Below are positions 1,806 through 48,325 of a DNA stretch of 64,000 nt, one piece after another. The stretch comes from Folioceros fuciformis (taxonomy: Eukaryota). Numbering within the stretch: position 1 is the stretch's first letter; each line of letters begins with the position of its first letter. Location: NCBI GenBank assembly GCA_049999805.1, contig JBNGIO010006246.1:275587-339586 (forward strand), in the 5' to 3' direction. A program made the position numbers and the translations under genes. Below the pieces are notes generated by a model, which made no database searches, was not told where the DNA came from, and saw only the letters and a list, made by a program, of their open reading frames with translations.

Positions 1806-2606
1806 GATTCGGAGCAGGGAAAACAATAGGAGTCGAAAATGGTGCCATTGTAGATTCTATTGCCAATGGTACTGGTGGTGCACTTGACAATGGTGGTTTA
1901 CTTGGAGACGCCTGCTTGGGTGTAGGAGGACTAGTCGTAATGTTTATGTGGATGTGAAAAATAAGATCAATGACATTCTTAGCAAAGATTGTTCCCTCAA
2001 AATGAAATTTTCCAAAACAAAGTTTGTGTGCAATAATTTTGTTTAATGCTTGTGATGGATGAAATGCATCCCACCAAGGAAGCTTCCTTGCATGAGCGCA
2101 AGGCGTGGTATCACGTTGACAAAAAGTTTTGCCATTAAAAGCTCCTCCACCACAACATGTAGTATTACTTTCAAATCCATGATTAGAAAGAGTTTTTATC
2201 ACATGGTGAGTAATCTGATAAGTAGGAGCCATGAATACTTTTGCTCCTTTCATTCCATCATCTTGTTCAAGCATATCCTTTATTGTAGCTAGAAGCTTGT
2301 TGTTATAACCTACAATCTTTTGGTTGATGTGACCCATACATTTTCCGATACATTTTTTTGAAGTATATGTCACATTATATTTTGCTAGTACAAAGGGCAT
2401 ACATCCCACAGGTTGTACCTCTGCTATGACAAACTTTCGCACTCCTATATTGTAAAAATCTTGAATGATATCTTTAAATTCACGTAGAATGTCATCTGTG
2501 AACTGGTCTGCTTTGCTCAATGTTGTTTCATTGCCGCTTGTAAGAAATTCCATCCAATCGTTGTTTCCTGTTGACAAATAAATTAGAGAATTGGCTACAT
2601 GGTGAG

Positions 2607-2977
2607 CATAATTTGTTGCATCACGTCAATGAAGCTGACTTAATGTATCCTCTCTGAAGTACATAAGTTGGTCCCTTAATGATATAACATTTCCAAATTG
2701 ATGTACACCTGTATCACGAAGAATACCGGATCTAGCTGACCTTAAATTAATACCCACACTAAGATTATTATTATGGGGATTTAAATAAGGACATAATTTG
2801 TTGCATCACGTCGAATGAAGTTGACTTAATGTATCTTCTCTGAAGTACATAAGTTGGTCCCTTCATGATATAACATTTCCAAATTGATGTACACCTGTAT
2901 CACGAAGAATACCGGATCTAGCTGACCCAAAATTAATACCCACACTAAGATTATTATTATGGGGATTTAAATAAGGA
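2607..2977. repeat. Tandem duplication, 2 copies of about 185 bp (2607-2791, 2792-2977)
   Basis: cataatttgttgcatcacg...ggatttaaataagga occurs twice, head to tail. Confidence 0.95.
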
Positions 2978-3289
2978 CGTGGGAGATGAGTCAAATTAAG
3001 ATACCCAGCTATGAAGTCAATAGCAAGCAAACCATTAGTATGTCGTCCTGTAGCTTCATGATGTGCAAAGTCTTGCCCAAATAGAGGGAAGTCCGCTCGT
3101 GCCAGCCCATGAGTATTCTGATGTTGATTATTACCAGCATCCACAGATGAGTCTCCAAAGATATATATACCAGTAAAATTCTTAGCCCTTATGCCACGTA
3201 AGTGACTTAAAACAAGCAAAAAACACGTAAGAAAAATAAACTTGCTCATGATGACGCCGTGCCTTGATAGTATATGTGCAGAACACTAG

Positions 3290-4655
3290 GATCCAAGAAA
3301 CCTTTGAATCTTATAACCTAGACAATTGTGTAGGTGTTGCTTGCTCTATAATTATCGTTGATGGAGAACTTATGTCTCTTATAAGCTCCTAGGAAAGCTC
3401 TCAAACTAACTTTCAATATGTCTCTAAGTGAGAAGTGAATTGTAATAGTTGAAAGCCAGTATGCCCATTTTATACTTGTGAATTTTTGTTTCTTGTTTAA
3501 GAATGGTTTACAATTATTTGCAGTCTTGTAATGTTCATGTTGCTACTGGAAGAATGGTTTTTGGTATTTGCAACCTTGTGGCCATCATGTAACTATCTAT
3601 AAAGGAGCTAACAATTCATATACATGTGGATCCATGGGAGCCATACACAACTATCTATATAGGGGTGCATCTATATCTCAAAAGAAGAACAATTGTATTG
3701 GAGTCTCTTAAGGATTGCTACCATTAAGAATGGTTTCTAATATTGCAATCTTGTGACCCTCATATGACCATTGGACAAGAGCTAACAATTGATATACATG
3801 AGATTTATAGAAACTTGCTTCTTTTTGAATAGTTAATAATTATGTGGATCAATGGGATGCATATACAATTATTTATACATATGGCACATCGGTACCTTAC
3901 AAGAAAAATTTTAATAGAGTTCACTAAGGGTTGCTACTGGAAGAATGGTTTATAGTATTTGCAATCTTGTGGTCATCATGTGACTACTTGTAAAGAAACA
4001 AACAAATTCTATACATGTATAAGATTTGTGAGCTTCTTAATAAGTAGTCAAATAATGGCCACAAGATTGCAAATACTATAATCTATTCTTGTAGTAGCAA
4101 CCCTTAGTGAACTCTATTAGAATTCTTCTTCTAAGGTATGGATGCGCCTTAGATAATTGTATATGGATCCTATTGATCCATATAATTGTCAACTATTCTA
4201 AAAAAGCAAGATTCTGTAAATATCATGTATACAAATTGTTAGCTTCTTAATAAATAGTCACATGATGGCCACAAGATTGCGCATACTATAACCCATTCTT
4301 ATGGTAGCAACATGACTGTTGCAAGATAGTTGTAAACCATTCTTACAGTAGCAAGATGATCATTGCAAGATTGCAAATAATTGTAAATCATTCTTATGGT
4401 AATAACATAACCGTGGCAAGATTGCAAATAGTTGTGAACCATTCTATAATAAAAAAAGTTCCACAATTATAAAATTGTGATATTGGCTTTCAATTTCTGT
4501 AATATTATTTATTTCTCACTTAGAGACGTGTCAAAAGCTAGTTTGAGATAATTACCGGGAGCTAAGGAGCATAAGTTCTCCAGCAACGACAATTATAAAG
4601 CATTGGTGGCACCTAGACAATTATGTAGATTATAAGATCCATACATTTTTGGATC
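3290..4655. repeat. Long imperfect palindrome / foldback with internal subrepeats
   Basis: Left arm (gatccaagaaa...gtctctaagtgagaa...) is the reverse complement of the right arm (...ttctcacttagagac...ttttggatc). Centre is tatacatgtata at 4010-4021. Confidence 0.9.
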
Positions 4656-37613: not shown

Positions 37614-39563
37614 TCATCTTTGTTTAACACTTACAATGTGTTCCCATCGTCCATCAAGAGACGCAACCTGCTCCTTCTGAACAGGAGAGATGTGGACCCG
37701 CTTGTCAAGTACTGGGGCACTCGGCTTCTTCTTCACAGTTGCTATGTGCTCCCACTTTTGAGGTCCAGGAGCAGCTACCTTCTTTTGGACAGCAGCTACG
37801 AGGTCCCGCGTTTCAAGATCAGCAGCACTCACCGCCTTCTTCATAGTTGCTATGTGCTCCCAATCACCAGGCACGGGGGCAGCTATACTGTTTGATTGAG
37901 TCCCCTCGGCTGCTTTGGTCTCCTTCCCAAACCCACATCTTTTGTACATCAGCAGTACTGCCGTATCCAAGTCAGAATCTGGCTCCACCAGAATCTTTGC
38001 AGCCTGAGATTGAAGCCATTTGCCAACCTCTACCGCTGCTGGTACTGTACAAGCTTCTAGCAGTTTGATGAATGTGGTCTGTGTTGGTGTGTGTCCATCT
38101 TGTAGCATGCGAGGGAAGAGCTCATACGTTTCTCCGTACTCTCCGTTCAAAATATATCCTGCAATCAGCATGCTCCAAGTAACGACATTCTTGCGGGAAA
38201 GACTGTCAAATATCTGGCGGGCTTGTTGCATATTCCCAAAGCTTGCATACATGTGAATTAGATTGGTGCCAACACTTACATCAGTTTCAAGTCCAACCTT
38301 TCTGACAATAGCGTGGATCTGTGTTCCCTCAACAACAGCTGCATCTTTCGCGCATGCAACCAGTACTGCGCCGTAGGAAGATCGATTTGGGCGGACTCCT
38401 TCGAGCTGCATCTGCTGGAAGAGCTCACGAGCCTCCTTGCACAAGCCATACTGATTGCAACCTGAAATCATAGCTGTCCAGGAAACGACATCTCGTGTCG
38501 ACAGCTTCCTGAACACGATGTGGGCATCAAGTATGGCTCCACATCTAAGATACATGCATTGGACTGCAGTTCCCACGATAACATCCGACTCAAATCCCCT
38601 TTGTACAACATCTCTGTGAATCAGCTTGCCGTGATTCAAATGCCCCGCATCGGTGCAAGCATTGAGAACACACACATATGTGATCTTGGTTGGTTTCACA
38701 CCTGCACTCTGCAACTTCCGATAGAGTGTGAAGGCCTTCAAAGTATGCCCATTACTGGCATAGCCAGCGATCATTGCATTCCATGACACCACGTCCCTCC
38801 TCAGCATGCTGTCAAATACCTGGCGTGCTGCCTCTACATTCTGACATTTAGAATACATGTCAATCAGGGAATTCTGCACAAACTGGTTTAGATTAAGCCC
38901 CTCATCACAGATGAGCCTGTGAACTCGCTCACCATCCTCTAGACTTCTCAACTTTGCACAAGCGCTAAGCACAGAAACAAGAAGCTGACCAGATGGCTTC
39001 ACATCAGAGTCCTGCATCTCGAAGAACAAGTTCAACCCTTCTCTACCTTGATCATTTAGCACATAACCAGTTATCATTGCAGTCCAAGAAAACAAATTAC
39101 GCCTTTCCATACTATCGAATTCCCTCCGAGCACGCTCTGTGTGGTTGCAGGATGTGTACAAGCGGATGAGATTGTTCCTGAAATATTTGTTGGCATACAG
39201 ATTATGTTTGATCAACAACGTGCGTACCCTCTCGCCCTCTTTGAGCACTTTCCTTTTTATACAGGTCTGCAAGATCAGACCAATCGTCTCGCTGTCAACC
39301 TGTAGGTCATGCTCATCTATTAGGTTCAGTGCCGAAGCCAGCCTACCCTGGTAACAGAGTTTCCGGACATCCAGGGCAACCGCCCTTGAAATCTCTGTGG
39401 GTGCAAGCCCACCTATCAGCTCAGGACCCGACACATTTTCCACCTCATGCAGAACTTCTGTGGCCAGTGCTGCCCGAGCAGCAAATCCATTTGAGCCGAT
39501 ACCCTGCATCATGGGGCCTCTTGCATCCACACGCTGAAGCCTGACACATCTGACCAGTCGCAA
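37614..39563 (-). CDS. PLS-class PPR protein lacking E/DYW, with a repetitive C-terminal tail; true start uncertain
   Basis: PLS repeats (NSLIDMYSKC, DVVSWNAMIAGY); the tail has three WEHI-containing repeats. Confidence 0.9.
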   Translation of the reverse strand: MRLVRCVRLQRVDARGPMMQGIGSNGFAARAALATEVLHEVENVSGPELIGGLAPTEISRAVALDVRKLCYQGRLASALNLIDEHDLQVDSETIGLILQTCIKRKVLKEGERVRTLLIKHNLYANKYFRNNLIRLYTSCNHTERARREFDSMERRNLFSWTAMITGYVLNDQGREGLNLFFEMQDSDVKPSGQLLVSVLSACAKLRSLEDGERVHRLICDEGLNLNQFVQNSLIDMYSKCQNVEAARQVFDSMLRRDVVSWNAMIAGYASNGHTLKAFTLYRKLQSAGVKPTKITYVCVLNACTDAGHLNHGKLIHRDVVQRGFESDVIVGTAVQCMYLRCGAILDAHIVFRKLSTRDVVSWTAMISGCNQYGLCKEARELFQQMQLEGVRPNRSSYGAVLVACAKDAAVVEGTQIHAIVRKVGLETDVSVGTNLIHMYASFGNMQQARQIFDSLSRKNVVTWSMLIAGYILNGEYGETYELFPRMLQDGHTPTQTTFIKLLEACTVPAAVEVGKWLQSQAAKILVEPDSDLDTAVLLMYKRCGFGKETKAAEGTQSNSIAAPVPGDWEHIATMKKAVSAADLETRDLVAAVQKKVAAPGPQKWEHIATVKKKPSAPVLDKRVHISPVQKEQVASLDGRWEHIVSVKQR

Positions 39564-40579
39564 ATGTCAACCAAGCTGTAAGAAATCCAAAACCCCAGAA
39601 ACGGGTCAAGTCTAAAGACGTACCTGGCACTCAAGGCACCTTGAACTCCGCAAAGCACATTGTAGCAGGATGCATGATGCTGCCCAGAAACCCAAGCTCC
39701 AGACTGGAAAAACACAAGCCCACGGTGACAATCTTGAGTTGCGATGTAACCCCGCCTTCTGCCAGATTCAGGGTCATACAGTTCATGATTCATACCGTTC
39801 CCCTGTTTCGGCAGGTCCACACCAGTTGCTGCAACACATCTCCCCGCTTCTTCCTAGCTGCTTCAAGATCCAGACAGGCCAACCCAGTCCAGTCTCTAGC
39901 TAGCTGCGATAGCCGCCAACACTGCGTTAACGTCTCAAGTGGAACCGACATTGTAGGGACGATAAATGCCCTCTACTAATCCAGAAGAATGGTGCCAAGA
40001 TCGTACCATTACGCAGTTCATGATGCAAGACGGAGAAGCTTGAACCTTGAGTTGGCGGTTGGGACATAGTATGGTGTGGCGAGATGAAGCAGGTTGCGAT
40101 GTTTGCAAATGGGCCCGACTAGGTGATTGTGCCTCAGCCCCAAGCATAGCCGGATTTACTGTCCGGCACAAATGCTAGAGCTCGACTAGTAAGCGTTTCC
40201 CGAAATCCAGTCGTTGGTCGATCAGACTCAACAGAAAAGTTTCAAAACTCCTCACCGATTTGGGCCATAATCCAGTGTGGCACCCCATCTGAGTGCACCT
40301 TTGGGATATACCATTTCCACTATCTAATGGTTGTCAAACAGGATAGCAGACATGTCTGGAAAAAACGCACCGATATGGTCAATGGCCCGAGCTAAGTGCA
40401 GGATGAAGATGCTCAGCTCGATCTGGCATGCAAGGCAATCCCGGGTTCTCACAGGCCTACCAGACGTAGATCTCTTCACGACCCGCTCTGTCATATGTGG
40501 GTTTGTGAACGACTCTGTACGTGTTCTGTTGATCAAGCGGGGCATTCGACCATTTTCACTTTGTGTCCAATCCGCAAGA

Positions 40580-42860
40580 CTATGCTCTGAAATGTATTAA
40601 GTCGGGGTTGATTTCCGGAGGTGAGGGTCTCTTAGAAGGATACTCTTCCAGGGATTTCGACAGGTTTATTGCATCCGCTAAGTATGCGGCATACTTCCTG
40701 CTGGCACTCATCTCCTGCTCCAGCTCCACATAAATGCTGCGAGTTTCGTTGCCATGGAGTTGTAAGGATCCGGACTCCTCAGCCCAGATTTCTTCCAGAA
40801 ACTTGCAACTGATGTGGCATTCCCCTGCTGTGGAAGCGGCAATGGGTAGGGGCACGACGAGGGTATTCAAACACGAGTCCTTCAAGGTCCACTCTCCAGT
40901 GTACCAGTCGAAGTCGTACAAGGGCAGAAATCTCTGACCCTGGTCAGCGACGAATTCTATGGCCGACAGAATGAAGTGGAACTCGTCGTCGGTTATGAAG
41001 AAGCCGAAGCTGAGCCTTGCCCACCCAGGCTTCACACCGATGTGGCCCTGCGGTAAGGAGACACATCCCATTATTAGTCCAGGACTGTTGGGTGGTCAGG
41101 AAACATAGCAAAACATAGCAGATTCTTGTTCCGCTCACCTTCCTAATCGCTTCCCGAAACGCCAAGGATTCGTCGTCGTCGATGTTCAGTAGGTAGTGGC
41201 CGTAAGGTGCTGCACAGGCACACCCAGCTCTCGCTTGTATCCCAAATAAATCATTCAATAGCCTAACAACAAAACGGCAGTGTAAAGGTTTCCCAACAGC
41301 TATTCTGCTCTCCCCGATGTTGTCAGAGCAGGCCTCCAGCTCTCTGGAGTACACCAGAAACGACAAAATGGCACATCGTTTCACTTCGGTGTTGCCAAGA
41401 ATGTGAACATAGGGATTCTTCTGCAGCCTCCTGATCGCAGTTGTGATGAAGTAGTGTTCTCTTTCGTCGATAAGGTCATGACCGATGAGCTCTTTCACCC
41501 AGAAAGCTAGAGCTGCCCTCACTTTTTGCAGTATGGGAGGTGTACCAGCGTCCTCTCGCTGCTCGATATCTTTGGCATAAATAGTATCCTGCAGAAAAGA
41601 GGCAGTCACGTTGACAAAGCTATGATCAATGCGCATGCAGTGCATGTGTTTCAGGGAAGTAGTGCCCGGAGATCACTGTAACAAAACACCTACAGCCTCA
41701 CCTTGGCATGCATGTTGACGTAATCTACGGTTCCACCTCCAGAAGTTGATGGGGGAAAGTCCTTCAGTAGGTACAGATCCTTTGTCATGACCAGAATTCC
41801 AGGGGATCCAGGGCCACCCAAAAACTTGTGAGGGCTCAGAACCACCGCATCATACCCATCCAGCTGCCCAGCACGCATGTCGATTCTGACATATGGGCCA
41901 CTGCAAATTGGACAAGGCGTTATCAGACCCGCAAGAAAGCAAGAAAGAGGAGCACTGCTGCTAGTGAGTTTAAACGGAGGTGTTAAAAGGCATGCCTAGC
42001 TGCAAAGTCGAAGCAGGCAAAGGCGCCGTGCTCGTGTAGAATGCAGGCTATGGCACGCGTGTCTGTTACCAGCCCAGTCACATTACTGGCGGCAGAAAAG
42101 GATCCCAGCTTTGGTCTGCTTCGATAATTTGGATCCTTGAGGGCTGCTCTCAACTTCCTCATATCCAGGCCACTGCCATCATCATTCATAGGTATCTCTA
42201 TGACCTGCACTTCACGCAACGGAGTTTTGTTCATCCCAACTATTTTCTGGCTGCAAATGGCAAACTCTGGTGAAACCGTCATACCTCAGCCAAACTCTCG
42301 CGCCAAGAAAGCAGATTTGAGTGGTGTTCATATGGTCCCACAAACACCACCCACTTTTCAGCGTCAACCAGCATTTCCCCAACTCTTGAGGTCAGAATTG
42401 ACGGCACACATACTCCCAAGCATTCCTGAAGCCTTTTCAAAGCTGCTGTGGTCCCACTTCCACAGTAAAATATAGCTTCGTCTCGTGTGGCCCCAAGGCA
42501 ATGCTTAATGAAGTCGCTTGCCTCATGAGCAGCATAGGTCATGGCTTTCCCCACATGACTGTCTTCTGTGTGGGTATTGCCTGCGAGAACAGAAATTACA
42601 GAAACCAAGTTCATTGGCATCTTTCCTCGGTGCACAAGCGAATACTCCAATTTCCAGCAAACAAAGGCTGAATTAAAGTAGACGCACCATAGAATGGAAG
42701 TAAGGTCTGCGCTATGAAGTTCTCCACGTGGAGAAGGGGCTGGCCCGACGCTGTGTGATCCGCATAGGTGAGCAGCCGTGTGGTCCCAAATGCCGTCCGA
42801 AACTCTATTGCTCGTCCTGGAATTTGAGACCTTATCCAAGCACATGCAGCTGCCTCGCTT
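40580..42860 (-). CDS. PLP-dependent class V aminotransferase / cysteine desulfurase-like domain (C-terminal part of the ABCG fusion)
   Basis: Motifs YADHTASG, GNTHTEDS, EHHSNLLSWRE, FSAASNVTG, DFAA, SPHKFLGGPG, EDAGTPPI, QARAGCACA and KPGWARLSF. Confidence 0.9.
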
Positions 42861-43039
42861 GGTTTCTCATTCTTCCAGATAGGTGGCAGCAATTCATCAT
42901 TTTCCAGAGTCAGCTTGAGAGGCAACACAGCATCGCCTGCCGATGTTCTCCTTGTCAACCATCTCCCTTTCCAACGGGTCAAGGTTTGATGCGGAGACCT
43001 TGGAACGACTTTGCAACCTCTTCGTCTTGCTGAAAAGAA

Positions 43040-46000
43040 CGTGAGAGCTGGTCTCAAGTTCTCACTCAGCTTGACTGTGATGTAGAACAGGGCACGGTAG
43101 AGAAAGACTTGTATAAAAACGATACCCAGGTTCATCCATTTTCCCCGGCCATCAGGCACTTGGAAATCCCTGTACACTATGTCTTCTCCTCTGATCAACT
43201 GCTGATTCAGTGGATAACCTTTGGACTTGAACGTCAGTCCCAGAAAGTCGTTCTCGTATAACCCCTGCACCCATAGCACAGTCGGTAACACACGTTTCAT
43301 GACAAAAGCGTATAACTGCTGCGATCTGTCACTCCTGACCTGAAATCCGTAGGTGTGAAACGCAATGTATGACATAGGATACCGCCAGATTGGTTTAGGC
43401 AAATCCCGAGGAAGGCGGAAAAAGCCTCCATTAAGCATAAGGAAACCCTGCAGCACACGAGGTGTCATGCACGTATCTAGACTTCGAATGAGAGGGATTT
43501 TTTCAAGGCGTCTTGAGTCTCGAGGGGATATGTCTTGAGTCTGTCAAGATGTTCCGTCTCGCAAGGGGTTGAGTGGCGAACCTGAATTCCAGCTCCTACG
43601 ATGATTCCCATGAGGAAGTTTGGAATGACTGCCGAGATGGCCATCATCATGCCCTCCACGGCAGATGTAGTTGCAAAGATCACGAGGACGAAGTAAGAGA
43701 AGTGAATGATGCCCGGATGCAGGCCCACTAGGAAGTACATGGCCGCTCCGGAAACACAGGCAATGAGTAACAGAAACGGCAAAGAAGATAGGGTGTTGCT
43801 CATCACAAAAGCTCCAACTCCATAGTGCCCGTTGAGTCGCTCCCGAGAGAACACCTAGAACTCCCCCACATCAGCATCTTTCTTCAGAAGGAGAAACGTG
43901 AATTGGAACTTGACTTGCTGCAATAGCTCCACTTGCCTTCATCTCTTCTACGAACGAAGGGAATCCACCGATTGCCATGAAGGTCAGGAATGCAATCACA
44001 AATGACAAGCTTGAAGCTCTTGCCTGTGTGACGTTTCAGACATGTGCAACACTTTCAGCGAACACTTACAGCAAATGGCCTATCAAGTACCGTGATCTAT
44101 GGAACGGAAGAGGAAATCCAGATCGATAAAGCAAACTTGAGAGACGAATTCATGGATACCTGAATGGCATCGTAGTCGGTGCCAACATCATAGTATATAG
44201 TTCCAATGGCAAGGCACAGTGCAACGTACATCAAAAGGCGAAGCCAGTAATAGCCCAAATCTCTTGACATGTTTGTGAAGGACCTGCGAGTGAGTGTGTA
44301 GCACTGCATCAAGGCGTTTGCTTTAGTTCCGGCTGATTCCCACATTGGCCCATTCTGCAAAACAAGGTTGAATTCCAAGCGTGAACACTGCGCTCCTGCA
44401 CTCCAAGTCGCACAGATCTCAAATTGAAGTCTAGCAGTGTCCTTGAACATCACTTTGGAATCCAGATATAACAATACCGACCATCTCAGCGATCTGCCGA
44501 GCCTTCTCTTCAGCAAGCTTGAAGTAAGAGGACGTGCTGTAATTGGCCACAAGAATTTCCGTGCGTTGAGATGTGGAAATGGCACGTAGGGGTTGAGCTT
44601 GCTCAAGATCAATGTCGTGGTTCCCTCCAGCAACATCCTGCGAGCATTTCATCCAACAGTCCTAAGACACCGAAAGCGCTAGATATTTCAGCTAGCTGGC
44701 CGCGGGAAACAGGGAAACAATCTTTCACCTTCTGAAATTGGGCACTCGTTGGAATAGCTGCCGACACATGGTCAAAGTCCGAATTGATTGCGCGAAGGAA
44801 ATGATCAGCAGGATTGCGCCATTGCGGACAAGGTAATCCCACATCCTCAAAATGCTGCTCGAGATCGTAACAAGACACAGGCCAACAAGAAAGGAGCCTT
44901 CAGTATGATTGTGCATGAGGTGAGATGCTCTTGAACCGGCCGTGAAACTTTTACCTGGTGAGCTTCCGCAGCTGAACCGAAGTATACAGTCTTCCCTCCA
45001 GAGATGAGCAAAAGGATGTCGAAGAGTTCGAACACCTCACTGCAAGGCTGGTGAAGGGAGGTGATGATGGTACGGCCATCTCGAGCCAGATTCTTCAACG
45101 CGGTTGTCACAAAGAAGGCTGCAGCACTGAAAGTCTTCAAGCATTCAATTACGCAAGCTAGCACCATTCTGAATTGATTGCACTGCTACTTCAACGCGTC
45201 CTCAGATCATCCCAAACCAAATGCATGGAATCCAATGGCGCCGTGCGATGGAATGCAATCTCCGGACGTGTACCGTAGATACCTGTCCAAACCACTTGTG
45301 GGCTCGTCCAGAAGCAGTAATCGAGGCCTGGTGAGCAGCTCTAGAGCAATTGTCACTCGTCTCCGTTCACCACCACTTAAGCCTTTCATATGCCAATTGC
45401 CCACAGGGGTGTGGACAACATCACGCAGACCCATGTCGTTGATTGCGCTGTCGACAATGCCCATCTTTTCATTCCTTGACATCCCAGCCGGAAGCCGGAA
45501 GAAGGCACTGAACGTCAGTGTCTCCAAAACGGTTAGCGTTCCCAACAAGGTGTCGTTCTGTGTCACGTAAGCCTACAGTAACACACATTCTCCAGATTCT
45601 CAGACTTCACTTCGGCATCAAGACGATCCTCTGTGACGCGATGATGTGACATCCTCCGAATACAAATGCCCTCAGACTACTTTTGTCCCTCAAACCAACA
45701 ATATGTAAAACATCCTGCTCCACAAATCAAGACCACAAGACCGATCGTCCAAACACCTTACCGCAACACCGTAAGCAAGTCCCTGTCTCTTGCCATTCAG
45801 GAAGATGTCTCCTGTCTGCCTCACATTCTTGGACAGCCTCCCTACCAGTCCAACCACATCCGAGCCGGTGCAGTCAGTGGCAAACTTCCTTATTTGTCAT
45901 ATTCACTTCTTAGTGGACTGTAACAACTGATATCTTCCTTAGCCCCCATTTGTGTGCACAGCACCCCACTCCACGACTCAAACACCCTCAACAAACGTAG

Positions 46001-46238
46001 ACTTACCGGCCAGAGTGTCCAGAAGAGTGGACTTTCCAGATCCCGAGGGCCCCATTACAGCAGTAATGGTGCCAGGTTCAGCATAGCCTGTGAGGCCATC
46101 AATGAGAGTGTTCACGGTACCCCCCCAAGACACCGTGACAGACAGATTGGACCAAGCCAAGTAGGCACCCACTTCAACCTCCTTGCCTTTCCCTTTCCCT
46201 TTCCCTGTCCCCTTCCCTGGCCTCGGGCTGAGCTCCAT
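43040..46238 (-). CDS. ABCG half-transporter (ABCG11/WBC-like), reading on without a stop into the PLP enzyme
   Basis: Walker [76 protein letters not shown] and [17 protein letters not shown]. Confidence 0.95.
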
Positions 46239-47684
46239 CAATTTCCCGAGCACCAACAAGTCCTACTCAAACCTCTGACAGATCCGGGTAGCCTTTACAG
46301 GCGACAGCTTCACTTTCTGCATCGATCAAATTCAAAATGATGCTCGTAAATGAGGCTCCATGTTTGGAGATTCATGTCACCAACCGGAAGCAACCATGGA
46401 TCACTACGCGTAGCGTTATGTACGAAATTCTGAGACTCTAAAGCGCAAAGTTGACGACGGATGAACGATACAAGTCCGCAACAAATGGCTCGCTCACCAC
46501 CCTAAACATTTTATAGAATAATTACAATGTTCCTTTTTTCACAATTTCCTAGAAACCGTGTGAGTTCTCACTTTCTATGTTCATTGTTCAGCTTTATTTA
46601 AACCAGAAAACTAGTGCATTCTAAATAACCCTTAAGTTTATTCAAGCTAGATACCTAGGGCTAGGAAGTATCTGTTTTATGTCGGAAGAGTACATGTCTT
46701 TAAATTCTAAGATACTTTTCACATATGTAATAAATTTTCATACCCACTCCATAATATATTATAACTATAATTATAATTAAATAAATAAGATTAAAGATGA
46801 TTGGTTGCAGGATACCTAATACCTACTAATAAAGATTATGAGGAGAATTATTATAAAACAAAGATGTCAAACCCATATACCCTAAAAGTAAGGGGAGACA
46901 ACCTAACCAAATGGAGTAGAAAACATTTCAAATTATAAATGGTATATTTTATAGTTATAATATATATAGTTTAATATGGAGAAATCCCAAAAAATTCTTT
47001 GTTCACATTAACTTCTAAATGACAACTTGTATGGATCAATCACTTTGTCTCTATCCATTCTACTTGAACTAATTCTTGAAGATCTAAAATTTTGTCATGC
47101 TTCACTTATCTCATGATGCACATCTCTACCCATGCTCAATGTTGAGTGTCTTAGTTTACATCCTCCATGACATCCAAGCTTACAACCAAGTCTTGGTTTA
47201 CAACCTTTCATGACATCCTCCATTGACCACCAAGCTTAGGTATAGTATAACATTGTGAGCTCATAGTTTGTTGTGAAGTTTAGGGTTTGTAAAGTTAGGT
47301 TGTAGGTATAAATGAAGACACCTAACAAAGTAAGTTGTGAGTGGTTTCATACGTATGGCAAACCATGGGTGACCTATTTATATTTACTACTCTTATCTAT
47401 TTCAAAAGATATATTTTTTTGTCTCAAATTCGATAAAACTTCATCACCTATTGGTTTGAGATGCTACTAACAAGCTCCCCATTTGTGACATGGGGTGATG
47501 CTAACTGAGTGCATGAACCACCTGATTACAACCCATTGGGAAAAAGGTCTCGTAATGATTTTAACAAGTATTGTTTAGGTTCCATTTGAGTATTGCTTCA
47601 TAATATTTAGGGTAGTTTGAAGTCTTTGTAATAATGCTTTTAAATAACAAAGAGAATATAGTATGAATAGTTAGATATATAATC

Positions 47685-47765
47685 GGGTTTGGGGTTTAGG
47701 GGTTGGTTTAGGGTTTAGGGGTTAGGGTTTAGGGTTTAGTGTTTAGGGTTTAAACCCTAAACCCT
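47685..47765. repeat. Interstitial telomere-like (TTTAGGG)n tract with an inversion
   Basis: About 9 degenerate TTTAGGG units followed by AAACCCTAAACCCT. Confidence 0.85.
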
Positions 47766-48325
47766 ATTTTTAAAAATATAATATGAATACTCAGATATAT
47801 TCAACAATTGTCAATGAAGTTAATATATTCTGTAAAAATATATATCCTTTACTTTTGAAGAGAAAATATTTCTATCATCGAAACATGAGGTGAAAGTTTA
47901 GCTATATATGTGAGGATCGAACCTCACTTTGCGCAAGCGAGAGGTGGGTGATTGCAGTTTTTTGCAATAGTGTCATTTTGTTGGATAGTTTGACGTAGTT
48001 TTTCAAGATGACACTTGTTAGTTATTAGTGTCTCTCCTTAGTCTTAGTGTGTTTGTTTTGTTTGACAATGTGATTATGTTCTTGTGCTTCATGTAGAAGC
48101 AAGCACTCTTTGCTCGTGGAAAGCCGAAGTTCATTTTTGTGATTTGCTCAACAACCTTTTGTAAGTTGAAGGGTTTGGGATTATTGCGTGACCTTTTCGA
48201 GTTGAAACGTTTGCAGTTATTGAATGATTGAGAATGTGGTTTTTGTGTGTGCTTTGCATAGAGATAAGCATAATTATGGAGTTGATGGTGGATTTGCTTG
48301 CTTGTGCAGACCAGATTCGGCAAAC

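Follow-up and report, generated by a model that had tools for sequence, protein, structure and literature searches.

A probable lineage-restricted gene fusion joining a half-size ABCG transporter to a class V PLP-dependent enzyme in Folioceros fuciformis

Plant ATP-binding cassette (ABC) transporters of subfamily G export cuticle, sporopollenin and hormone-related compounds, and half-size ABCGs act as dimers, as do fold-type-I enzymes dependent on pyridoxal 5'-phosphate (PLP). Transporter polypeptides that also process their cargo are found elsewhere among ABC proteins, in bacterial C39 peptidase-containing exporters and in peroxisomal ABCD transporters with acyl-CoA thioesterase activity; to our knowledge, none of these enzyme-bearing transporters contains a PLP enzyme or belongs to ABCG. 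Here we describe a locus of Folioceros fuciformis in which the frame of a half-size ABCG transporter continues into a complete class V PLP enzyme. It lies on the minus strand of a 64,000-nucleotide (nt) stretch of contig JBNGIO010006246.1 (positions 275,587 to 339,586; assembly GCA_049999805.1), which we call the window and number from its first letter. The idea of a transporter with a built-in enzyme is shared with the C39 and ABCD proteins, from which the locus differs in ABC subfamily, enzyme fold and position of the enzyme. We consider the fusion gene probably real and lineage-restricted, and its domain architecture new as far as searched.

The closest described counterparts of the first half are plant half-size ABCGs of the WBC type, such as Arabidopsis ABCG25 (PDB 8i38) and ABCG16 (8wtm), which have the same order of ATPase before membrane domain and six hydrophobic segments. 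For the second half, type II cysteine desulfurases (SufS, CsdA) come nearest among curated models and solved structures, and the closest relatives are stand-alone plant proteins of about 600-660 residues, annotated as 'Aminotransferase class V domain-containing protein / probable cysteine desulfurase'. We met no paper on this stand-alone family, at which no literature search was aimed.

Exon borders were read from the minus-strand sequence between 47000 and 40000, and exons were joined by their coordinates (Table 1). The resulting model has 16 exons and 3918 nt; it opens with the ATG at 46238, keeps phase across all exons and runs for 1305 codons to a single stop, the terminal TAG at 40582-40580. 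The original prediction, made from the sequence of the window, had placed an ABCG half-transporter fused in frame to a PLP enzyme at 40580-46238, and these limits proved to be exactly the coding span of the open frame. Thirteen introns are GT-AG and two are GC-AG, the GC donors following exons 8 and 13. Along the frame the order is ABC ATPase, six membrane segments, a basic linker and a complete class V PLP enzyme. A tblastn search of the window with the model returned the locus itself as the sole match and no second copy.

Pfam models were run exon by exon, the scores being those of single exons and not of the whole spliced protein. In the ABCG half, ABC_tran (PF00005) matched exon 3 with 55 bits (cut-off 25) and ABC2_membrane (PF01061) matched exon 9 with 53 bits (cut-off 26.9); the matches and their coordinates place the nucleotide-binding domain N-terminal to the membrane domain. 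Walker A (GPSGSGKS), the Q-loop (VTQ), the signature (LSGGE), Walker B (LLLLDEP) and the H-loop (LHQP) can all be read intact in the translation, and they include the Walker and signature motifs that had been listed as kept. The best solved relatives of exon 3 are ABCG25, ABCG2, ABCG8 and ABCG16. A Kyte-Doolittle scan in 19-residue windows, a crude measure used in place of a topology predictor, gave hydrophobic segments at residues 385-410, 418-442, 462-491, 494-519 and 518-544 and, after a gap of about 70 residues, a sixth at residues 617-639. Beyond this last helix the ABCG half has no stop of its own, and the frame runs on into the PLP enzyme. The premise of the original prediction that half-size ABCGs end shortly after the membrane domain did not hold, the related ABCGs P0123, P0188 and P0246 ending 50-57 residues beyond the last helix. 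Whereas these half-size relatives carry such a tail, the window chain continues past the last helix for about 665 residues, into the PLP enzyme.

The two halves meet in exon 11, a stop-free exon of 577 nt that is entered in phase 0 and left in phase 1. It codes for the end of an ABCG loop, the sixth segment, the linker and the first conserved residues of the enzyme, about 52 in number; neither exon 11 nor exon 16 gave a Pfam match in the exon-wise search. An exon carrying the last helix, a basic linker and the enzyme start without a stop had been predicted, and both of its borders are seen in spliced RNA contigs. The first 46 residues of the linker are strongly basic (11 Lys and Arg against one Asp or Glu). 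The chance that 70 random codons stay open is 0.035 and, multiplied by one third for landing in frame, about 0.01.

Both ends of exon 11 have counterparts in the parent families. It starts where the last exon of related ABCGs starts, the fragments P0123 and P0188 beginning at the same ...YEN(D/E)F... point, and it ends where the first exon of the enzyme family ends, the fragments P0121, P0122 and P0198 leaving the frame directly after ...LPFYG. Since both borders are usual for the parent families, exon 11 resembles a merger of the terminal exon of an ABCG with the first exon of an enzyme gene. The tails of related ABCGs open with the same ...ENL(R/G)P... as the window linker, and P0123 and P0188 agree with the window both in the last-exon border and in how the tail begins (...ENLRP...). 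Stand-alone enzymes have variable N-termini of 40-110 residues; with ABCG tails of 50-57 residues on the other side, the linker is explicable as remnants of both. We also considered a seam near residue 695, where the tail ends of P0188 and P0123 resemble ...DAVLPLKL... by eye; a MAFFT alignment disagreed, and no seam is claimed.

One fragment resembles the junction itself. P0121, of 129 residues from a 7291-nt contig, is 48% identical to the window over its alignment with exon 11, which covers the whole linker and reaches into the enzyme start with two 1-residue gaps. Its first residue aligns 2-3 residues past helix 6, and by this alignment the fused exon may also exist in a more distant relative, P0121 being its translation from the first ATG. 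A 1-residue insertion and the motif ...ASGQPL... are common to the window, P0121 and P0122 and are absent from the vascular-plant proteins in the alignment.

In the enzyme half, Aminotran_5 (PF00266) matched exon 15 with 28.9 bits and exon 13 with 22.4 bits (cut-off 21.5), and exon 12 below the cut-off with 17.6 bits; jointly, the matches span positions 29-342 of a 371-position profile. The chain aligns, from about residue 713 to its end, with stand-alone plant proteins of 599-662 residues. In alignments to B. subtilis SufS chains (with the 66-residue exon alone, E 0.14), the Schiff-base lysine of ...LSPHK..., named as the PLP lysine in the original prediction, falls on the lysine of ...LSSHK...; it is invariant in all 12 aligned family members. 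An EHH-x-N motif is presumably also common to the window enzyme and SufS. Across nine plant and two bacterial homologues we defined the invariant blocks YEHHSN, SPHK-x-x-GGP, LNDLFGIQAR-G-GC-x-CAGPYGH and KPGW-x-R, followed by a C-terminal extension. All are present in the window model, which departs from them in two conservative changes (R-A-GC and CA-A-PYG), the second of which also occurs in P0003.

Compared with SufS and CsdA, which have the aligned PLP lysine, the family lacks an invariant cysteine at the SufS catalytic position and instead has an invariant G-C-x-C cysteine pair, in the motif G-G-C-x-C-A-G-P-Y-G-H after a conserved arginine, and an extra C-terminal domain of about 150 residues. 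In molybdenum cofactor sulfurase, the persulfide cysteine of the NifS-like domain lies in a similar R-x-G-C-x-C motif. On these sequence features the family is best described as a class V subfamily of plants and bacteria that resembles desulfurases and C-S lyases. Its stand-alone plant members, such as SELMODRAFT_91270 of Selaginella (P0005) and O6H91_21G047700 of Diphasiastrum (P0045), in which exon 15 is 50-62% identical, share with the window enzyme the C-x-W-[IL]-R-S-Q start, the invariant motifs, the C-terminal extension and an intron after ...LPFYG. They differ in having their own initiator methionine and an N-terminus of variable length without a membrane helix.

Assembled contigs from two runs hold parts of the window. 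One set (X1) is from the same organism and matches the window perfectly; the other (X2) is from a relative, about 92% identical, with exons diverged by 5-8%. Because the contigs skip introns at the borders of the model, we take them to be derived from RNA. Their joints confirm 10 of the 15 introns exactly; the listed joints include neither introns 1, 2, 4, 5 and 8 nor the start codon, and no listed RNA contig shows the GC donor of intron 8 (43936-43937). The most informative X1 contig (record 2, 2391 nt) matches from 43135 to 40259 with 0 mismatches and 0 gaps. It runs unbroken from just before helix 6 to 42687 and is then spliced through exons 12-16 into the 3' untranslated region, confirming the five introns of the enzyme part, among them the GC-AG intron after exon 13, whose ends read CT..GC on the plus strand, and the joint 42579/42687, at which exon 11 passes into exon 12 in phase as predicted. 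Since this contig crosses the linker without a gap or mismatch, introns, frameshifts and assembly errors are absent from the linker, which is co-transcribed with helix 6 and the enzyme as a single piece.

Towards the ABCG side, an 800-nt contig of the relative (X2 record 7) holds exons 9 and 10 and all of exon 11, spliced at 43446/43581 and 43263/43339. In the related organism, the ABCG exons are spliced onto the linker exon. Over exon 11 (43263-42687) this contig has 47 mismatches and a single indel, a 3-nt insertion behind 42893 that is in frame and duplicates a GAT codon. X2 joints were also found for introns 3 (45126/45283), 6, 7 and 12, together with shifted versions of introns 13 and 14. 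The central claim of the original prediction, that ABCG and enzyme are joined in one frame through one exon, is thus borne out by the open frame, the mismatch-free linker in X1 and the splicing of exons 9, 10 and 11 in X2.

These contigs bear directly on the concern that two genes are falsely joined in the linker through loss of a base or collapse of sequence, a generic worry for any surprising open frame, for which we found nothing specific. The stop or frameshift that the original prediction had named as the sign of such an error is not there: X1 is free of mismatches and gaps from 43135 to 42687, although X1 may share the project of the assembly and its independence is therefore uncertain, and the contig of the relative is colinear with the window apart from the 3-nt indel. 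We consider an artefact of assembly or sequencing very improbable.

A second alternative accepts the joined frame and denies it a function. The stop codon of the ABCG would have been lost recently, and the read-through product would be inert, degraded or unstable; alternatively, the ABCG half would be in decay. The architecture occurs in no annotated proteome searched, and this narrow-looking distribution is what such an accident would leave. However, the arrangement is common to the relative with its 5-8% divergence, which has retained the splicing and whose indel in exon 11 keeps the frame; the ABC and PLP motifs are all intact; and P0121 suggests an older origin. Moreover, of 172 differences between X2 and the window, 40 were listed, none in exon 11, and of the 38 that are coding, all from enzyme exons, most are synonymous (23, against 15 that are not). 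A functionless accident is accordingly a quite unlikely account of the locus.

Proteome searches for the combined architecture, a check proposed with the original prediction, gave no fused protein among the matches listed. Of 2205 relatives of exon 15 from a search of longer proteins, none of the best 120 has an ABC domain; all are stand-alone proteins of 267-914 residues, 50-62% identical. Likewise, none of the best 150 of 177 matches in an exhaustive HMMER search with exon 11 covers both halves of the exon, each having a single matched stretch in a protein of at most 764 residues. Comparison of exon 11 with longer proteins (854 candidates) and with proteins of near length (104 candidates) gave no significant match, and the ESM Atlas gave no usable match to the fused protein. 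A metagenome scan with the alignment of exon 11 and P0121 returned 88 pattern matches, of which none was confirmed. Scanning with exon 15 found 559 relatives, the best 80 loci being at most 58% identical; when residues 1-715 of the model were compared with these 80 loci by tblastn, 10 matched in the generic ATPase domain at 23-31% identity, and no match to the membrane domain or linker was obtained. Full-text literature searches, judged from titles and the beginnings of abstracts, returned no paper on a fusion of ABCG with a PLP enzyme or of an ABC protein with a desulfurase. The architecture, which the original prediction had not recognized as described, is new as far as searched.

In some bacteria from the exon 15 scan, an ABC gene lies near the enzyme gene. 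In five loci (L076, L059, L075, L060 and L043) the enzyme gene is preceded, at a distance of about 3 kb, by an ABC ATPase gene of the same orientation; in a sixth (L080) an ABC ATPase lies about 4.5 kb upstream. In L076 (4593-10783) the order is ABC ATPase and ABC-2 permease, a LigD primase-polymerase on the opposite strand, the enzyme and then an aldehyde dehydrogenase; L059 (4382-10780) has the same layout of open reading frames, and the bacterial enzymes are 554-561 residues long. The five loci with one spacing look like a single lineage, and we rejected this neighbourhood as independent support for a link between exporter and enzyme, as probably lineage-specific synteny with an unrelated opposite-strand gene in between.

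The explanation that we favour, and hold to be reasonably probable, is a single gene that arose by merger of an ABCG terminal exon with an enzyme first exon and whose fused product, with the enzyme in the cytosol, couples the enzyme to export. A half-size ABCG gene would have stood immediately upstream of a class V PLP-enzyme gene, and its terminal exon would have been joined to the first exon of the latter, with deletion of the stop codon of the transporter, the intergenic spacer and the start of the enzyme. The predicted product of 1305 residues would begin with a cytosolic ATPase and six helices and, after some 70 residues of basic, flexible linker, end in a complete PLP enzyme of about 590 residues. 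Solved ABCG structures show the chain emerging from helix 6 on the cytosolic side, and with the Lys/Arg-rich tail this would place the enzyme in the cytosol, beneath the membrane near the ATPase domains, where the linker would tether it. A single homodimer could serve both the half-transporter and the PLP fold. The enzyme would act on a small amino-acid-like substrate, most likely by C-S or C-Se cleavage of the SufS/CsdA type, and its chemistry could be physically coupled to ATP-driven export by ABCG, so as to provide the cargo or to dispose of a by-product. From the model we infer that translation gives one protein, as well as its topology, dimerization, chemistry and coupling; we likewise infer, as the original prediction did, that the protein may make or modify a metabolite at the membrane and export it.

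Several observations weigh against this explanation. A full-length fused protein was not found in any protein or metagenome database searched. On the chemistry, the curated NCBIfam SufS model scores P0005 with 96 bits, P0045 with 102 bits and the bacterial homologues with 132-133 bits, all far from its cut-off of 475.1, and window exon 15 alone with 31.8 bits; a cysteine at the SufS catalytic position is present in one of nine plant and neither of two bacterial homologues, although the window has one. The active-site 'HC' of SufS aligns with ...PLHC... of the window, about 20 residues upstream of the RAGCAC loop. That cysteine loop had been cited in the original prediction for a desulfurase-like enzyme; it is present and its G-C-x-C is invariant in the family, whereas the argument for a desulfurase is weakened by this alignment. 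On the RNA side, no X1 contig joins exons 1-10 to exon 11, the sole bridging contig is that of the relative, and de Bruijn contigs can merge overlapping transcripts. Furthermore, the 5' end of X1 record 2 is 43135, exactly the ATG of Met617, and a shorter enzyme-only mRNA is conceivable. The lack of X1 cover over the ABCG exons themselves was counted neither way: no X1 contig has at least 90% likeness between 43178 and 46128, beyond which a 40-nt low-complexity match lies at 46178-46217, and such a gap proves nothing; contigs resembling human sequence are filtered.

Such a shorter mRNA is the basis of a further alternative, in which the locus has two products and the enzyme comes mainly from an internal start in intron 10 or early exon 11, the fusion mRNA being rare, tissue-specific or absent here. 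A stand-alone enzyme of about 690-745 residues would be made from the ATG at 43300 or from Met617, with helix 6 as a membrane anchor. The original prediction had stated that no in-frame methionine follows the helix; this holds up to residue 779, and two possible starts went unmentioned, Met617 before the helix and the ATG at 43300 in intron 10, which is in frame with exon 11 and has G at -3. The position of the X1 contig end on the Met617 codon agrees with internal initiation, and transcripts are tightly packed here (51 nt separate the neighbouring X1 contigs at 40259 and 40208), so that a compact internal promoter is not far-fetched. However, a contig end is not a transcript start, and a transcript from 43135 would be leaderless. 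One starting slightly further upstream would first meet the ATG at 43139, which is out of frame, has a strong context, lies 4 nt upstream of the Met617 codon and opens a frame of 25 codons. In addition, exon 11 of the relative is spliced to exons 10 and 9, and this alternative leaves the ABCG half without a stop codon, even though it has kept all its motifs. We regard the two-product reading as improbable, if worth keeping in view.

After residue 560 the only methionines are at 562, 617 and 779, and Met779 lies within the conserved enzyme domain. With none between 617 and 779 and a poor context at Met617, the enzyme has no other obvious whole form, and either half is most simply made whole as part of the fused protein, as the favoured single-gene explanation proposes.

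A bolder version of the favoured explanation treats the fusion as a 'Rosetta stone'. The widespread class V PLP family of land plants and bacteria, with members of 550-660 residues, would normally partner an ABCG-type exporter, and here the two would have been welded into one dimeric machine that releases persulfide or selenide, or forms a sulfur metabolite, at the cytosolic face while the product or its acceptor is pumped out. We hold this version to be rather doubtful.

Table 1 Exons and further features of the fused gene model, in window coordinates
Feature	Position	Strand	Content
Exon 1	46238-46007	-	Start codon; Gly/Lys-rich low-complexity N-terminus; Walker A GPSGSGKS
Exon 2	45841-45762	-	Joined by coordinates
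Exon 3	45572-45283	-	Q-loop, ABC signature LSGGE, Walker B LLLLDEP; PF00005
Exon 4	45126-44955	-	Joined by coordinates
Exon 5	44854-44729	-	Joined by coordinates
Exon 6	44637-44482	-	Joined by coordinates
Exon 7	44354-44160	-	Part of ABC-2 membrane segments 1-5 (exons 7-10, 43340..44354)
Exon 8	44023-43937	-	Within membrane segments 1-5; GC donor after the exon (43936)
Exon 9	43854-43582	-	Within membrane segments 1-5; PF01061
Exon 10	43447-43340	-	End of the region of membrane segments 1-5
Intron 10 ATG	43298..43300	-	In frame with exon 11, G at -3; possible start if a transcript begins in intron 10
Exon 11	43264-42688	-	Junction exon: loop end, segment 6, linker, enzyme start
Met617 ATG	43133..43135	-	Directly before segment 6; weak context, T at -3
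Linker	42851..43063	-	About 71 codons (about residues 645-714), without stop, without Met
Exon 12	42580-42285	-	PLP enzyme; PF00266 under cut-off
Exon 13	42204-41996	-	PLP enzyme; PF00266; followed by GC-AG intron 41995-41901
Exon 14	41900-41702	-	PLP enzyme
Exon 15	41588-41139	-	PLP enzyme; PF00266
Exon 16	41047-40580	-	End of PLP enzyme, TAG
Exons 12-16	40580..42580	-	YEHHSN, SPHK, RAGCAC-AAPYGH, KPGW block, C-terminal extension of about 150 residues
3' untranslated region	40259..40579	-	At least 321 nt; X1 contig extends to 40259

Further observations concern the surroundings and relatives of the gene. The Gly/Lys-rich N-terminus is coded by a GGGAAA-like simple repeat at 46178-46217, which also matches unrelated X1 contigs of high cover (record 3, depth 143, 2 mismatches) and is uninformative for the fused gene. 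Two AT-rich blocks, at 46001-48000 (GC 0.37) and 2001-4000 (GC 0.36), stand out from a GC content of about 0.50 elsewhere in the window, and the first lies directly upstream of the start codon of the fused gene. Downstream, an open frame of 650 codons at 37614-39566 on the minus strand is rich in pentatricopeptide-like (PPR-like) repeats; the X1 contig of this neighbour, of 3721 nt, ends at 40208, 51 nt from the end of the fusion contig. A further X2 contig at 43405-43631 (bin depth 16.3) matches exon 9 and, from a loose end at 43581, goes on into a sequence that resembles exon 10 but differs from it. One or more paralogous ABCGs are therefore expressed in the relative, and the cover of other ABCG exons in X2 may come in part from paralogues. 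The stand-alone enzyme is multicopy in some plants, with at least five listed proteins each in Macadamia integrifolia and Nelumbo nucifera, and there are no Brassicaceae entries among the best 120 listed enzyme relatives; together, these may hint at lineage-specific expansion and loss of the enzyme.

If the fused protein is made, it would be a new kind of cargo-processing ABC transporter and would give a PLP family that is conserved in plants and bacteria a concrete functional connection, open to test, with the membrane and with an ABCG exporter. The attached C-S-lyase-like enzyme would then point to an unrecognized class of ABCG substrates. Were the short form alone made, a transporter helix would have been recycled as the membrane anchor of a soluble enzyme; and should the 'Rosetta stone' version be true, it would be the first case of a PLP enzyme built into an ABC transporter.

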